Of a DNA stretch of 64,000 nucleotides, positions 15,001-21,000 are shown piece after piece. Made by a program: the position numbers. The first letter of the stretch is position 1. Every line of letters begins with the position of its first letter. Location of the stretch: IMG/VR virus record IMGVR_UViG_2939521961_000004. One strand, given 5' to 3'. The DNA comes from a virus (lineage: Duplodnaviria > Heunggongvirae > Uroviricota > Caudoviricetes).

Positions 15001-18000
15001 CCTCAAAATCGGGTTCAGCAGAAACCAGTTCAGATGTTTTTGGCATCGTTGTCAGACCGTGTGGAATATCCCTGCGGAGAACTATGGGGTCGTTTTTAGG
15101 GCCGATTACAAATGGGATGCCGTGCAGTCTTAACTGGTGTTGCTGTTTTGTGTATCGCTCGTATTTCGTGATCTCTTTAATCTCTGCTGGAGATAGAGTT
15201 AATTCGTACATGTGGTCACGTGCCTTTACAGCATGACCGCCGCCACTATAGCTGGTGGGCGGCGATATGGGTTGAACATCAAAAATCAGCCTGACTCGGG
15301 AGCAGTTTTTGCCAGATGGCTGAAACGTATTTCGCCTGGTAACGTGCATCGTTCAGAGCGTTATGGCGTTCACCTTCGAATGGAATAGTCGTTCTTGCGT
15401 CGAAATCCATCACCAGTCCCAGAGCAACCATCGTTCTTACATCGCGATCATTGGTGTAACGCCACGGGCAGGGGATCCCCTGCCGTTCATATGAACGGCG
15501 TAAAATCACGTTGTCGAAAGTTGCACCGTTACCCCAGACCTGAACAAAAAATTCACCGGAGTTTTCGTCGATAAATTCCCGTAATTGCAGCAGTGCATCA
15601 TCTAACGGGATTTCATCGGTAAGAATGGCGGATTGCGCTTCGCGTGACTGTTTCAGCCACCACTTAATGGTGTCCCGATCAATGACTCCGCCAGCAGTTT
15701 CCAGATCGATAGTTTTGCTGAATTCTGGCCCCATCTCTCCGGTTTGCGGATCGAAAAATATTGCACCTATTGAGATAATCGGGGCATCAGGATTTTTTCC
15801 CATGGTTTCAAGGTCGATCATCAGATGAATCCCCGCTCTGCTGGTGGATGTGAGATTATGATGACCGTTCGCCTTAATTAAGGGATCTGACGCCTCGCCA
15901 GTTTCACTATCGCTGGCATGATGCTGATTGCCGCCAGTGTTCTCCTTGTGCTGATGCGCAGTGCCTTCCATTTCCTCCGGATCATTTTCCTGAACTTCAG
16001 GCTGATTCTCTTCATCGAATATTTCCTGGTATGTTGCGTCACTTATCACCGCACCACAATCAGGGCAGCTACCGCCGCCGGTCTGACCGCAGGCGGTGCA
16101 GGCTTTTTCCGGCTCCTGTTTCGTTTCTGGCTCGTTTTGTTGCGCATTTGGGCTGTTTTGTTCCGTTTTCTGGTCGTTCTGTTCCGATTCTTGCTGGTTC
16201 TGGTTCACAGAATCGCAGGTTTCAATCCCCTTCACCCATTTCGGATCATTCGGATCGCTAATCCCTTCAACAAATTCACCACGTGATGCAGCAAGCAATT
16301 TATCGGCGTCAGGCTGGCTGATATTGGCTGCCTGCATAATTTTGTTTACTTCGTCAGCGGTAACTTTTACCGGCTCCGGTTGTACGGAATCTTCAGCGGT
16401 ATCCACATTTTGCGGTAAGTCCGTGTATGTTCCGTTTTTGCGGGCAAGATATTCTTCTTTCGTGATTTCAGTAGCCCCGGCAGCCAGTGCCTTATCCAGA
16501 CCAGAAAGTTTGTTTGCGCGACCGTATTTTTCGCCATCCTTGTCGGTGAAGAGGAAGTAGAACGGCCCCTCACGCTCTACAGATGGTTCGACTTCCACTT
16601 TGCATTCGGTTTTTTCGTTGTCCGGAATTGCCGTTTCCACTGCATCAGTTTCTGGTACTGGCGACGAGAGAGTATCAGTTGCGCTCTGATTTGTTCCTTC
16701 ATCTTCAAACACGCCCTTTGTAGTCAGGTATTCAGTAATGTATTTGTTCAGTGCCACAGGGTCTTTGTGAATGTCGATCGGACGTTCACGGACAAGGCCA
16801 AAAATAGTCTGGCGGTCGTAGCGAAGGGCATCAGGCTGTTTGCGCATTGATGCCGAGATACGCTTCCAGTCTTCGCGGTCGTTGTCGATAACTTCATTTT
16901 TTGCCCAGCGATGGATGCTGCCGTCAATGTTTCCGGCATCCACATCACCAGGCCAGAGAGCGTAGGCCAGTTCGTCATCCAGTGTTTTCCATGTCTGCTT
17001 GTATTCGCGATGAATGGCAGCAATGACCGGGCTGATTTTTCCTGTTGAATTTTCAGTGTGCTGTTGATTGGCTCTGGCGCGGGCGAGATCAACAACAGAC
17101 GTGTATTTTCCGGTTTCCTTGCGTTCACCTTCGCGACGTTTTTTCCAGATGCGCATCTCTGCCTGAATTTCGGGCCATTTGGCACCTGGCTTACATTTAT
17201 GCTTAACCCACCCGATGGCATGCAGCTTAAGCTCCGGATACATGGCGTTAACTTCTGGCATTTTCATCAACGCTTCAACGATATGTCCGTCGAATGTTGC
17301 CATGTCTTCCTGCAACAGTTCCTGCGCGCTAATCACCATATCAACGGTGATGTTTTCACATGTGTCGAACTTAACCATGACAGCGTTCTGTACTTCAGGG
17401 GCCAGCTTGTCAAAAGTGACGTTTATCGGATCTGATTCAGTCTCAACCGGGACAAAGGAAGCAGACTCCTCATCCCAGCGGTTTTCCTGCATATATTCAG
17501 CATCCCAGGAATCGAGGGCAGGGCGGGGAATACCGGGTTTATCCTCGCAAACAAGAAATTTATAAGCGCAGTCCTGAGCAGCCGGATAATGTTCCAGGAA
17601 TTGCCAGTGAAATTTTGCGCGGGCGCGACGTTCATCACCGGCTTCAATGGCAGTGGCTACAGCGACTGCACCTTCTTCCTTTATTGCCTGTTCGTCCGGA
17701 ATGGCGGCGCAAATAAAGACTTTACTCATTTTGTTTTACCTCATTACAGATTTCAGGGTGAACGAATCCCTGCCATTGCTGGCATTTTTAATCCGTTGGT
17801 ATGGTGTTAATATGGCTGGAGGGTTATCCAGCCGGTGTTTCGTTATTCAGGTACAGCGATACTTTTTTTACCGGGAGGCATTCACCAGAAATTTTTTGCT
17901 CGTCTCTTGCCTGGAGGCAGGATTCTTTACTGGCATAAATTCCGGTAATCACATTCTGTGATTCACCCGTTATAAGAAAAACCGTCATCATCAGTGCAAA

Positions 18001-21000
18001 TGCTGAAGTTATTGACGTTCTCCGAAAATACCAAGTTCAAGAAGAGCAATTCGGGAAAGTATGGAATTATCATTGAGCAGATAAGGCTCATATTTCCTCA
18101 TATTAATGGCATCTTCAGTAAACTCCCGGTTACTGAGCAGAACACCAATATCAAAACAACCTTCAGACGTATTAACGTTTGGTAATAACGTTTCCATTAT
18201 CGCGTCCTCAACAATGAATTTTGTGATGCGGTGCCTGGTGCCTCCAGGTGACGTTAACCAGTTAACAATTAACGCCGGATACAGAGAATCCACCCATAAC
18301 ACTGTTTTTGGTTTTAACTGTTCCGCGTGCGCTGAGCCGCATTCACCGCATCACAAAATTCACTTTAAAAAGGGCGGCAGAGCAGCCACGGAGTAAAACT
18401 GATACCGCCAAACGTCACCAGAAAATTGATAACAGAGGGCGTTGCAGCGGGGTTGTCACTTAAGCGTATGGTCAACCTGACAACCCGGTGTCCTCAACTG
18501 GGGAAGGAATAACCCCGCCATACTTACCGCCGCGCCATTTCGCGGATTGCCACAACCGGAAGCGCACGGTCGACGAAAATTTAACGACAGGCTATCTATG
18601 AACCAGCTACCTCGCCGTGCGCTTTCGCGTTATGGTCTGACTTTTCAGGGAAATATCCTTTCAGTAAACTGTCAGTGCCGGATGCTCACCCGTGTCCGGC
18701 GCACGCACTCCACCTCACCCGTGGAGAACTCCTTAATTACCAACCTTAGCTTCGTTGGTTAGCTATTAACGCGGGTATGTAATCATTCTGGCAATGCTTA
18801 ATGCCGCTGCTTTTTCCAGATTGGTGATATCCTGCTCCAGAGCGGACAGATTTTCAGCCTGCTTAGCCCTGGCTTCATTGGCCCATTTCAGGTCCTGCGC
18901 TGCCTTAATTTTCTGGTGCATCCACTCATAAAGTTCATCATCGGTATAGTCTGGCGCGATGATGACGGGTTCTCGTTTCTGCATGTCGGCTCCTTGTGGT
19001 TAGCGCTGCCTGCTTTTAACCACGTCAGGCGAGGTGGTATCCTCTGAGGGGTCTGTTACTCGAGAGGAAATTGGTTATGAATACAATCAAGTTTTCTTGC
19101 CCAGAATGTGGTGGCGAAGTCTTTGACACATCCTTTAAACCGCATGGCTCTGACAGTTTCGCGGGAGCCATCTGCAAAAATTGTGGTCACCTTGTAACTG
19201 AAGATGAGTCCTCGCAGTTTGATGACGAAATCGTTGACAATATCTTCGGTGCACTCACCAGAGACTTTCTGAAGTAAAGGCGCATACCGCTTAGTTACCG
19301 CTCTGATAATTCTTACCTGTCCGGCAATGGCGCTGATATCAATATAAAGCGCCATCGCTGTTTCTTTGCTGATCCCTGGATGCCTTCCATTCTGATGTTT
19401 GACTTCGCCCACTGAGAAATCCTCTGTTTCCCCTTAACGCCGGGGTAGCGGAACAAAAAACCTGCTGCATAGTTAAACGTAATCCCCGCCGTCATGTTCA
19501 TACGCCTCAGGCTGGCTACTTAACCCCTGACCACTGCCGGGTAACTCGAAGTATTGCCCTGCGTTCTGTGGGGCGGGGTGGGTTTATGGATACAATTTAC
19601 AAATTAAAATTTAACTGGTCAACATGTTTATTATTAAATTTGTAATTGCGGGCTGTTGCATCAGTCCCAAAATGGGACTACTATACAGTTATGAAGATTA
19701 TCTCAGTTAAAACACTCAGGGATTTTTGGGCGGAGAATCCTGATGCAGAACAACCGCTAAGGGCATGGGTGGATGAGGCGGCAAAAGCTGACTGGAAAAG
19801 CCCAGCAGACATTAAGGCACAATACCGAACGGCCAGTATATTGAAAAACCGGCGCGTGGTATTCAACATAAAAGGTAATCATTACCGTTTAATTGTTGCA
19901 ATTGCGTATCAGCGAGGATGGGTATTTGTTAAATTCATCGGAAACCACAAGGAATACGATGCTATTGATGCTGATACCATCGAACTGGAGTAAGCATGAA
20001 CATCAAACCTATTCGTACAGAGCAAGATTATGAAGCCGCGTTGCGTGCTGTTGAACCCATGTTCGACAATGAGCCCGAAATTGACACGCCTGAGGGGGAT
20101 TTTTTTGAGGTGATGTGTTTGCTAATAGAGGAATATGAAAAAAAACATTATCCCATTGAGCCACCATCCCCAATTGAAGCTATAAGATTTCGCATGGAAC
20201 AGCAGGGGCTGACTGTGAAAGATTTGGAACCCGCAATTGGGAAAAAAAATCGGGTTTATGAGGTGTTGAATGGTACCAGAAGCCTTACGTTACCAATGAT
20301 TCGCCGTCTTCATAATCAATTTGGTATCCCCCTGGAAAGCCTGGTTGGATTATAAAATCTGCTAGTCATTTGCCTGATGCTCGTTCCAGAAAAGGAATGC
20401 ATCAGGCAGTTTTGTTTTTCTGCCGCAGTAACTCTTCAAGTTTCCGTTTATAGAAATCGCGTTTTTGCTCCATATCACGAATGATCTGCTCTGCGTCGCT
20501 TTGAGGTAACTCATCTAAAAGCGATATGATTTTTCGTTGTTGTTCTGTAAGTTGCGGTTGGTTGTCATTACTGGATACAGCCATTTTATCGCCGAGAGTT
20601 TCTTCTTCCATAAAGAACCAATGGACGGGATGTTGTGAGAGCTCTGCTAATTTTTCCAGTTTATCCATTCTTGGCATCACGCCTTTCAACCAACCTTGCA
20701 CGGATTGGGGTTTTACACCAAGACGTCTTCCCAGCTCTGACTGGTTTATATTCAATTCCTGCAACACCTGCTGAAGGCGTTTTACAAAGATCATCACCAC
20801 CCCTCGTAAACTAGTTCCGCGATCCTACAGAAAAAATTGATAAGTGGCATTACAAATAGAAGTTGAAATTTAAATTTAAATTTGTAATTATCGGTGTCAT
20901 CGTAAAGTTCGGAGGGAAACATGCAAAAAAGTACTCAAGTGAAAATCCTGTCAATAATGAGCCAATCAGAATTAGGGCGTCGTCTTGGTAAAACACCGCA

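Follow-up and report, generated by a model that had tools for sequence, protein, structure and literature searches.

Positions 17824..18984 of the window, by which we mean the whole 64-kb stretch of viral DNA that was analysed, hold a ydfC-leader-dicF-spacer-dicB-ydfD module that belongs to a Qin/Rac-type lambdoid prophage of the kind carried by non-O157 EHEC and would operate like K-12 dicBF, a reading to which we assign a probability of about 0.92. Its gene order, ydfC-dicF-dicB-ydfD-exonuclease, is that of K-12 Qin, and DNA identity to K-12 is ~98.5% from ydfC through about dicB codon 19. Prophages of E. coli O26:H11 11368, O103:H2 12009 and many others match the DNA at 100% identity, and ydfC, dicB, DUF1482 and exonuclease are annotated in them. 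Similar sequence is present in 4759 of 5426 complete E. coli genomes, with 6-10 places resembling the query in each of the O26:H11 and O103:H2 genomes. The dicF/dicB observation that led to this analysis is confirmed, and the original reading of every element holds. The DicF/DicB cassette itself is already known and is an ordinary, well-studied prophage module, whose small RNA and small protein are both inhibitors of cell division. The fresh point is a conserved pseudoknotted RNA structure upstream of DicF, which is present in phage P1 too.

The DicF sRNA (53 nt) lies at 18372..18424 on the minus strand. Rfam RF00039 matches 18372..18423 (-) over model positions 1-52 of 52 with 75.0 bits (E 1e-14; gathering score 48 bits), and alignment to K-12 dicF reveals a single difference, A39G. 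An intrinsic-terminator U-run (TTTTT) occupies 18367..18371 (-). The hairpin preceding it was also picked up by a simple terminator scan and is predicted to be the same as in K-12 (-15.4 vs -15.9 kcal/mol, followed by UUUUU). The substitution retains the hairpin pair as U·G and falls on a base that is unpaired, in an internal loop, in the predicted ftsZ duplex. For both alleles the predicted duplex with K-12 ftsZ (-28..+60) has -40.8 kcal/mol and the same dot-bracket, so that pairing of the DicF 3' region with the ftsZ ribosome-binding site, defined experimentally (PMC5069750), is predicted to be retained. Nucleotides 1-38 equal those of K-12, and the 5' region that pairs with xylR and pykA is thus intact. 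The G39 allele is found in 4 of 82 canonical DicF copies among IMG/VR loci. The original prediction of a near-exact minus-strand DicF with its terminator, for which a covariance-model search and alignment to K-12 dicF and dicB had been proposed, is borne out: the match is full length and includes the ftsZ-pairing region.

The protein-coding genes of the module, all on the minus strand, agree with this assignment. The first, at 18766..18984, encodes 72 aa; its product, named 'protein YdfC' where RefSeq has the region at 100% identity, matches phrog_1744 with 134 bits, and the DNA is ~98% identical to K-12 ydfC. Directly downstream of dicF is dicB (18009..18197, 62 aa), named as such in RefSeq. 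Its product matches Pfam PF05358 with 125.5 bits (cut-off 27), residues 1-62 on profile positions 1-62 of 62, which makes the predicted 62-aa DicB homologue a Pfam-level family member. It is nonetheless a variant allele, 63% identical to K-12 DicB overall, with residues 1-33 almost the same and the C-terminal half diverged. As in K-12, dicB overlaps the next CDS by 4 nt. This ydfD-like gene (17824..18012) sits inside the interval first described, although it was not mentioned there. RefSeq begins it at an ATA in the position of the K-12 ATG, for a product of 62 aa; the next ATG, at 17991, would give 55 aa. The K-12 ATGA at the dicB stop reads ATAA here, and the overlapping ydfD ATG is lost. 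The protein matches DUF1482 (PF07358; 56.3 bits, cut-off 25) and shares 44% identity with YdfD, the lysis protein of K-12. The exonuclease gene follows the module at 15279..17729; it is called 'exonuclease' in RefSeq, encodes 816 aa with a Pfam Rv2179c-like 3'-5' exoribonuclease domain (221 bits), and is intact, whereas the K-12 counterpart (ydfE) is a pseudogene. DicF and dicB were expected between an ORF in the position of ydfC and the exonuclease gene, and that ORF is ydfC itself.

The module had also been described as embedded in the leftward early operon. Synteny supports this part of the description; the K-12 promoter dicBp, ydfA and ydfB are missing here. Their place is taken by a Zn-ribbon gene and higB/higA, three opposite-strand genes that stand between the repressor-like gene and ydfC. 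The repressor itself, in contrast to K-12 Qin, is a RacR/DicA-like HTH protein of 132 aa. No promoter was identified, the promoter-like matches being weak and at chance frequency. The same absences, the convergent higBA and Zn-ribbon genes and the poor promoter matches would fit an inert relic whose dicF and dicB are never expressed, the native promoter region having been replaced. We consider this very unlikely, as the RNA elements and ORFs are all intact and the same in many independent genomes, and multi-copy DicF activity in EHEC is published, according to the citation in PMC9438474. Multiple dicF/dicBF copies are known from EHEC O157:H7 Sakai and EDL933 (Balasubramanian 2016, PMC5069750; Melson & Kendall 2019, as cited in PMC9438474), likewise prophage-borne and in a pathogenic E. 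coli background. Nothing substantive differs from these, and the window adds one more copy with the G39 allele. Viable lambdoid phages also carry the module: Tritos (OV696610), in which DicF is annotated, and mEp460_ev081 (LR597641) have it between the repressor and exo-xis-int, in the order repressor, small ORFs, the conserved leader domain described below, DicF, dicB, ydfD, exonuclease, xis and int, with 93-99% identity to the window over the leader. Unlike the window, both retain ydfA/ydfB-type ORFs right after the repressor gene.

The dicF-dicB spacer (18217..18360, minus strand) is also structured. A perfect 17-bp helix closes it (18360..18344 with 18233..18217), and its MFE of -65.9 kcal/mol (z = -5.3) was equalled by 0 of 200 shuffles. 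The helix is probably an RNase III site yielding the 72-nt DicF species cited in PMC9438474. The spacer aligns with elements upstream of kil in Shigella phage 75/02 Stx and of tciA in P1. It resembles the STnc100/PasD family (RF02076; bioRxiv 10.64898/2026.05.13.724894) in its GGUGAAUGCGGCU..AGCGCACGCGG and CACCUGGAGGCACCAGGCACC hairpins and long closing helix. Assignment to STnc100 was rejected, since the match reaches 37.4 bits where 47 is the gathering score (E 2e-6, model positions 21-154 of 206); the spacer is moreover an intra-operon 5' leader of dicB rather than a stand-alone sRNA gene. A true STnc100 is found at window positions 33183..33355.

The identity, completeness and conservation of these elements were read directly from the DNA, and expression, processing and targets are taken from K-12 work (10.1101/2023.04.14.536235, PMC9438474, PMC5069750, PMC6832061). 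By homology with the K-12 dicBF operon, the module would be transcribed within a polycistronic leftward RNA that is silent in the lysogen. RNase III cleavage in a long upstream hairpin, P0, would give a 190-nt form of DicF, and RNase E would then produce the 53-nt form; the 3' end may arise by termination at the DicF hairpin or by an RNase III cut in the 17-bp helix beyond it. The 3' half of DicF would pair with the ftsZ ribosome-binding site and the 5' half with other mRNAs (xylR, pykA and manX; pchA in EHEC). Transcripts running past the DicF terminator would encode DicB, which is expected to recruit MinC and so block FtsZ rings, and to interfere with ManYZ-dependent phage DNA entry, both with the qualification that the C-terminal half of this allele has diverged. 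The influence of DicB on phage susceptibility mentioned in the original prediction is in the literature as DicB-mediated phage resistance (PMC6832061).

Upstream of DicF, the gap to ydfC is 341 nt (18425..18765) and contains only a 31-aa GTG ORF and a 36-aa TTG ORF; a 1-nt indel at window position 18499 disrupts the frame of the former in K-12. The estimate of about 340 bp lacking a convincing ORF is thereby upheld, and the suggestion that this is processed leader RNA agrees with K-12, in which RNase III cleavage of the leader yields a 190-nt species that builds up and remains stable in stationary phase, the 53-nt species being made by RNase E (bioRxiv 10.1101/2023.04.14.536235). The cleavage-site regions (P0, the RNase E site and the 17-bp helix) are conserved here relative to K-12. 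In predicted folds, P0 (AAGCGCACGGCGA ... UCGACCGUGCGCUU) spans 18560..18624 (-). It is probably the RNase III substrate, its 3' strand holding the 5' end of the 190-nt precursor, which maps from K-12 to about 18561/18562. The cdtI and Citrobacter variants have an equivalent helix of other sequence (GAGAGCAUUUA/UAAGUGCUCUC). Next to DicF, a linker identical to K-12 (18425..18440, minus strand) carries the AU-rich site of DicF 5'-end formation, which is RNase E-dependent in K-12 (bioRxiv 10.1101/2023.04.14.536235), in the loop of a small predicted hairpin. The leader is more than a passive spacer, as it holds a conserved structured domain.

This domain, which we call block A, occupies 116 nt directly 5' of DicF (18441..18556, minus strand). 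Covariance model R1 matches 18427..18569 with 159 bits and found no second copy in the window; block A had no match in Rfam at E<=10. The fold, which covariation supports, is a four-helix junction with a closing helix P1 (18556..18549 with 18448..18441), a P2 hairpin, P3, a variable hairpin P4 and P5, and a 6-bp pseudoknot in which GUAUGG (18523..18518) pairs with CCAUAC (18471..18466). With a search pattern that fixed parts of the sequence, including 5 of the 6 pseudoknot pairs, 96% of cells pair, compared with 32-52% when partners are slid. Changes on both sides were found in 13 pairs, a number reached by 0 of 500 shuffles, although related sequences without any structure can exceed such controls. 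Those properties of pattern and control, together with the >95% identity of most copies, would suit a leader that has no function of its own, conserved through recent descent of a mobile module and structured only incidentally. That account is unlikely and already disfavoured: compensatory changes fall in P1, P4, P5 and the pseudoknot, also in genomes outside model building (Serratia, Erwinia, Izhakiella, Trabulsiella and Citrobacter), the slid partners drop as given above, and the domain is retained where both flanks are replaced.

Conservation of block A extends across prophages of Enterobacterales and to the leader of the phage P1 ban operon. An intrinsic terminator lies within ~0-50 nt after it in 77 of 79 distinct variants, and these terminators vary in sequence (canonical DicF, Stx2c/cdtI type, P1 type, Salmonella type and others). 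DicF is among these versions of the terminator behind block A. A motif, GGCGGUA, is present inside block A, and most terminators have it at their base. Phage cdtI has, after the cI stop, a terminator and a strong promoter (TTGACA-16-CATAAT); then come a 285-nt leader, block A, a terminator of -21 kcal/mol and the first leftward ORF. In P1, model R1 finds block A with 102 bits in the annotated 'dicF-like region' (AF234172 68791..68892). One pseudoknot pair there is a compensatory C-G, a terminator hairpin comes next and an STnc100-like element lies farther downstream; no DicF was found in this region by Rfam at E<=1. Compared with the window, the phage P1 copy has no closing helix P1 and lies near the transcript start, upstream of tRNA genes, tciABC and ban.

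Block A could be the body of a stable ~190-nt RNA with the terminator hairpin, serving as a processing or stability scaffold or having a trans function of its own such as protein binding. The stable K-12 190-nt species points this way, as do the two cleavage sites, the RNase III site in P0 coinciding with the 5' edge of block A and the RNase E site falling 16 nt beyond its 3' edge, and the covariation of P0 between types; the invariant loops and pseudoknot suggest a specific 3D fold bound by something. We nevertheless hold this to be rather doubtful. In P1, block A is near the transcript 5' end with no upstream mRNA to stabilise, a four-way junction with a pseudoknot, kept from Escherichia to Erwinia and Serratia, is more than a mere scaffold would need, and the RNA is without a known partner.

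It is quite improbable that block A and the terminator form a riboswitch-like attenuator, in which the conserved sensor binds a ligand or factor and decides whether the terminator forms. Such a device would suit the layout, in which the structured domain is conserved and the terminator after it varies, and the shared GGCGGUA motif. Furthermore, the MFE of the DicF-type 190-nt RNA is an alternative fold in which the terminator's 5' strand is taken up by the 3' strand of helix P1, and the DicF 3' half by GGCGCGGCGGUAAG. This antiterminator pairing is, however, not nested in the Stx2c/cdtI type and absent in phage P1 (sequences inspected by eye), so a conserved, mutually exclusive pairing of sensor and terminator was not found across the DicF, Stx2c/cdtI and P1 types. 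There is also no Rfam riboswitch match and no ligand candidate.

The reading that we favour, as a tentative guess, is that block A acts in cis as a processive antitermination RNA in phages without N, allowing RNA polymerase to pass the DicF terminator and later ones. In HK022 and HK639, lambdoid phages without N, the put RNAs are likewise structured and lie upstream of terminators in the early leftward transcript, and the 126-nt 'putL-like' feature of HK639 is similar in size to block A. The put RNAs suppress termination in cis and depend on the RNA polymerase beta' zinc-binding domain. Block A has a put-like placement in cdtI, the P1 ban leader, Tritos and mEp460: in the early transcript, upstream of terminators, in phages without a detected N. 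The almost constant terminator of varied sequence behind block A fits this role, as does cdtI, where the strong promoter, leader, block A, terminator and leftward ORF occur with no N gene. In P1, block A starts ~15-20 nt past the transcription start that the P1ban -10 implies and heads a 2.6-kb leader with tRNAs and a terminator, and the DicF terminator precedes exo-xis-int in both Tritos and mEp460. Neither the window nor any block A locus was found to encode a homologue of the N proteins of the P22, lambda or 21 families, a co-occurrence test that spans few N families and short flanks. Phage 75/02 Stx, where an N-like protein is present (phrog_271, E 2e-21), has block A reduced to a 3' remnant, yet retains a DicF-like terminator.

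Several observations argue against antitermination. Block A was rejected as a put homologue: model R1 found nothing above noise in HK022 or the whole HK639 genome, where the best score, 9.6 bits, lies elsewhere than the annotated putL-like RNA, and block A shares with put only short motifs in a different order. Whereas put consists of two stem-loops and its phages carry both putL and putR, block A has four helices meeting in a junction, plus a pseudoknot, and is single copy in each phage, the rightward operon having no counterpart. Its distance from the promoter in Qin-type operons is ~800 nt, and the boxA-like motif 5' of it belongs to the P0 helix. Should the favoured role of block A in terminator read-through be true, dicB, exo, xis and int would be expressed in phages that have no N protein, and DicF-type sRNAs would be terminator modules placed behind block A.

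A single, full-length DicF was found by the Rfam scan of the whole window, at 18372..18424 on the minus strand (model positions 1-52 of 52, 75 bits, E = 1e-14; the gathering score for DicF is 48), followed in the sequence by a T-run at 18367..18371. After a spacer of 169 nt comes dicB (18009..18197, minus strand, 62 aa), with a Pfam DicB match of 125.5 bits across the entire protein. It is followed by a ydfD-like gene (17824..18012, minus strand; Pfam DUF1482, 56 bits) and a gene for an 816-aa protein (15279..17729, minus strand) with a Pfam Rv2179c-like 3'-5' exonuclease domain. 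On the upstream side a leader of 341 nt (18425..18765, minus strand) separates DicF from ydfC, a 72-aa ORF at 18766..18984 on the same strand. The ORF scan of this leader gave just a 31-aa and a 36-aa frame, both non-ATG and neither credible. A coding leader was also rejected because the frame is disrupted by a 1-nt indel relative to K-12 (the dicBF operon of the cryptic prophage Qin) and by 4-nt length changes in a hairpin, P4, described below. These results confirm the original prediction, which had placed a near-exact DicF with its terminator and a 62-aa DicB homologue on the minus strand between a ydfC-position ORF and the exonuclease gene, with about 340 bp upstream of DicF that hold no convincing ORF, and they support its reading.

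DicF differs from the K-12 sequence at one position, A39G, and nucleotides 1-38 are identical. The substitution changes an inner-stem U-A pair to U·G, and the same hairpin is predicted (-15.4 versus -15.9 kcal/mol for K-12). The duplex predicted with the K-12 ftsZ leader has the same structure and energy (-40.8 kcal/mol) for both alleles, position 39 lying in one of its internal loops. The 3' end of DicF pairs with ftsZ and its 5' end with xylR and pykA (PMC5069750). Alignment to K-12 shows that the match is complete and includes the ftsZ-pairing region. The G39 allele is a minority among the IMG/VR loci fetched (4 of 82 canonical DicF copies). DNA identity to K-12 Qin is ~98.5% over the stretch that starts with ydfC and ends near codon 19 of dicB, and ~55% beyond that point, which indicates a mosaic junction inside dicB (window ~18140, minus strand). 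DicB is 63% identical to K-12 DicB, with the N-terminal 33 residues conserved and the C-terminal half diverged, and the YdfD-like protein is 44% identical to K-12 YdfD. Among 5426 E. coli genomes, 846 have the dicB-3'/ydfD allele of the window and 3965 have that of K-12. Where the dicB stop overlaps the ydfD start (18009..18012, minus strand), K-12 ATGA reads ATAA in the window, so the RefSeq DUF1482 coding sequence begins at ATA; from the next ATG (17991) the predicted product has 55 aa and lacks the first 7 residues.

The module had been described as embedded in the leftward early operon. In K-12 Qin this operon begins at dicBp just after dicA and continues with ydfA-ydfB-ydfC, whereas ydfA, ydfB and the dicBp region are absent from the window. 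In their place, three genes on the opposite strand separate ydfC from a RacR/DicA-like, repressor-like HTH gene (20402..20800, minus strand): the higB/higA toxin-antitoxin pair (19646..20355, plus strand) and a Zn-ribbon gene of the ECs_2282 family (19071..19277, plus strand). A consensus scan for a ydfC promoter returned matches at chance level (7 found, 6.6 expected). With the K-12 promoter region replaced and the scan at chance level, the leftward-operon placement is carried by synteny. Beyond the exonuclease gene, the integrase/excisionase end of the prophage adjoins a pair of overlapping plus-strand ORFs (13361..13687 and 13684..14574) that bear an ALIL frameshift pseudoknot (Rfam, 13642..13758, 121 bits), which we read as an IS3-family insertion sequence.

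Prophages of E. coli O26:H11 11368, O103:H2 12009, O45:H2 and many others match the 1.4-kb module region at 100% DNA identity, and similar sequence occurs in 4759 of 5426 complete E. coli genomes, at a median of two places per genome. Multiple dicBF copies have been described in O157:H7 (PMC5069750). Viable phages carry the same module between the repressor and exo-xis-int, with DicF annotated in Tritos. A 247-nt piece of Aeromonas phage AP1 (MT713136.1 249906..250152, a 254-kb record) shares 98% identity with the dicF-dicB region of E. coli and is probably contamination or a chimeric assembly. The interpretive statements of the original prediction are also covered by the literature. The suggestion that the leader is processed RNA agrees with the 190-nt (RNase III) and 53-nt (RNase E) DicF species cut from a polycistronic transcript that lacks an internal promoter (10.1101/2023.04.14.536235), and the effect of DicB on susceptibility to some phages with its exclusion of ManYZ-dependent phages (PMC6832061). 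The finding thus holds and was known before: this is a textbook prophage module, and existing knowledge is unchanged. It is useful for annotation, since RefSeq records of the identical region annotate ydfC, dicB, the DUF1482 protein and the exonuclease and leave dicF without annotation.

The dicF-dicB spacer is itself strongly folded (-65.9 kcal/mol, z = -5.3), far more stable than shuffled sequence. A perfect 17-bp helix (18360..18344 paired to 18233..18217) closes its structured part (18217..18360, minus strand); the two differences from K-12 within the helix replace the wobble pairs U·G and G·U by C-G and G-C. A 72-nt DicF species arises from downstream RNase III cleavage (PMC9438474), and its expected 3' end falls within this helix. 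In Rfam the spacer matches STnc100 below threshold (37.4 bits, gathering score 47, E = 2e-6), and it can be aligned to elements that precede kil in Shigella phage 75/02 Stx and tciA in phage P1. The late region of the window contains a bona fide, full STnc100 (33183..33355, plus strand). Upstream of that copy and of a 645-aa ORF, three tRNA genes are clustered in the late-gene regulatory region (32162..32410, plus strand).

When the leader was compared with phage genomes by sensitive BLAST, a block of ~120 nt immediately 5' of DicF proved to be conserved by itself. This block, here called block A (116 nt; 18441..18556, minus strand), is ~89% identical in phages cdtI, Ayreon, 2H10 and Stx2c-converting phages, 84% in Salmonella phage F1055 and 78-81% in phages P1 and P7; in none of these loci did Rfam find DicF, even at E<=1. 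In the GenBank record of phage P1 it overlaps a "dicF-like region" feature in the ban operon leader. A pattern scan found it in more than 120 IMG/VR contigs and in genomes of Escherichia, Shigella, Citrobacter, Trabulsiella, Serratia symbiotica, Erwinia tracheiphila and Izhakiella. Three MAG contigs, labelled Bacillota, Veillonella parvula and Collinsella, carry it with or without DicF in versions identical to those of E. coli or phage P1, and are probably mis-binned enterobacterial phage contigs.

The alignments suggest five helices and a pseudoknot. Helix P1 closes the domain (GUUGUGGC/GCUGCAAC in the window, GUUGUGGU/ACCACAAC in the cdtI type), P2 is a hairpin (CCGCG/CGCGG), P3 is short, and P4 is a variable hairpin (CGGGG/CCCCG, CUGGGG/CUCCAG or CAGGUG/CACCUG, and CUGGG/CCCAG in phage P1). 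P5 has 9 bp (GGGUAACCA/UGGUUACCC in Izhakiella), and GUAUGG forms a 6-bp pseudoknot with the P5 loop CCAUAC, one U-A pair of which is C-G in phage P1. A covariance model built on block A, R1, matches at 100-165 bits in all listed taxa. Across 15 distinct rows, from related sequences in an alignment fitted to R1, 96% of cells are standard pairs compared with 32-52% when the partners are slid, and both sides change in 13 of 39 pairs, which was matched by none of 500 shuffles. Five of the six pseudoknot pairs were prescribed by the search pattern; the pseudoknot pair that covaries and the changes in P1, P4 and P5 lie outside that constraint. We conclude that block A is very probably a real conserved structure, a four-helix junction with a 6-bp pseudoknot; that it has no function seems to us quite unlikely. 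It had no Rfam match at E<=10 and is apparently an undescribed RNA element, the phage P1 annotation showing that the sequence similarity was noticed earlier and the 190-nt structure possibly having been drawn before.

A long hairpin, P0 (18560..18624, minus strand), lies directly 5' of block A, and the cdtI and Citrobacter variants have an equivalent helix of different sequence. The 190-nt "long DicF" of the literature is expected to begin in the 3' strand of P0 and therefore consists of block A plus DicF. A stable RNA of this size serving as a scaffold, or having an independent function, is a possible reading of block A, on the unlikely side. Immediately 5' of block A there is a boxA-like motif (GTGCTCTCTTC; some taxa have ATGCTCTTTCC). 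It was not counted as evidence, because it makes up the 3' strand of P0, a hairpin that covaries. Two T-loop-like hairpins (GGUUCGAUUCC; GUCCGUUCAAUUCGGAC) occur in the leaders of Salmonella F1055 (L008 ~1390..1490), Erwinia and Izhakiella, and ARAGORN found no tRNA upstream of block A in these types. In an IMG/VR contig and in Shigella flexneri SFBU1023, the sequence usually upstream of ydfC (GACGTAGTTAAAAGCAGGCA...) is joined directly to P2, with deletion of ydfC, P0 and the 5' strand of P1.

Of 79 distinct downstream sequences, 77 have an intrinsic terminator (a hairpin and a T-run) within ~0-50 nt of block A, and one of the remaining two is a chance match. The terminators include canonical DicF, the cdtI/Stx2c type (GGCGGUACCAG...CUGGUACCGC), at least four other Escherichia types, a short type in phage P1, and long types in Salmonella, Erwinia, Serratia and Trabulsiella. 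The long hairpins of F1055, Erwinia and Izhakiella enclose a Shine-Dalgarno-like AGGAG and an AUG or GUG, the downstream frame not being conserved. As the terminator varies behind a constant block A, DicF is one of several interchangeable terminator modules. In cdtI the cI stop is followed by a terminator, a strong promoter (TTGACA-16-CATAAT), a 285-nt leader, block A, a terminator of -21 kcal/mol and the first leftward ORF, and an N gene is absent. In phage P1, block A begins near the P1ban start point.

By analogy with put (the antiterminator RNAs of HK022 and HK639) and nut, our favoured guess, a tentative one, is that block A may help polymerase to pass the terminator. It sits in early transcripts, the terminator behind it is obligatory, and viable phages must express dicB-exo-xis-int past the DicF terminator. 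No N homologue was found in the window or in any block A locus, while Shigella phage 75/02 Stx, which keeps only a 3' remnant of block A and a DicF-like terminator, has just downstream of its repressor gene an unannotated gene for a 90-aa N-like antitermination protein (KF766125.2 ~7827..8096; L152 2328..2597, minus strand; phrog_271, E = 2e-21). This co-occurrence test is however thin. Block A also lacks similarity to the put RNAs, for which we used HK022 putL, located by published primers, and the annotated putL-like RNA of HK639; only short motifs are common (GCGCGGCGG, ACCAUGCG), in a different order, with no covariance-model match. Furthermore, there is one copy per phage, and in Qin-type operons it lies 800 nt from the promoter. 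With filters off, no second, putR-like copy was found in the window, where block A occupies 18427..18569 including flanks, or in phage cdtI. Alternatively, block A and the terminator could form a riboswitch-like attenuator. An alternative fold of the antiterminator kind exists in the DicF type only, and because it is not conserved we rate this as very unlikely.

The broader form of the read-through reading is that block A represents a new class of phage cis-acting RNA that controls polymerase passage through the following terminator, an analogue of put and nut in phages without N, with DicF and its relatives being its terminator modules co-opted as trans-acting sRNAs. We give this a probability of a little over one in four (about 0.28). 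DicF has been a model sRNA since 1989, and to our knowledge the 5' domain of its precursor has so far been treated only as a processing substrate. Block A, a side result here, could matter more than the DicF/dicB finding, and it raises the overall interest modestly. If block A does control read-through of the DicF terminator, this would account for the expression of dicB, exo, xis and int past a strong terminator in phages without N, the "dicF-like region" of phage P1 would gain a function, and a third kind of phage antitermination signal would stand beside nut and put.
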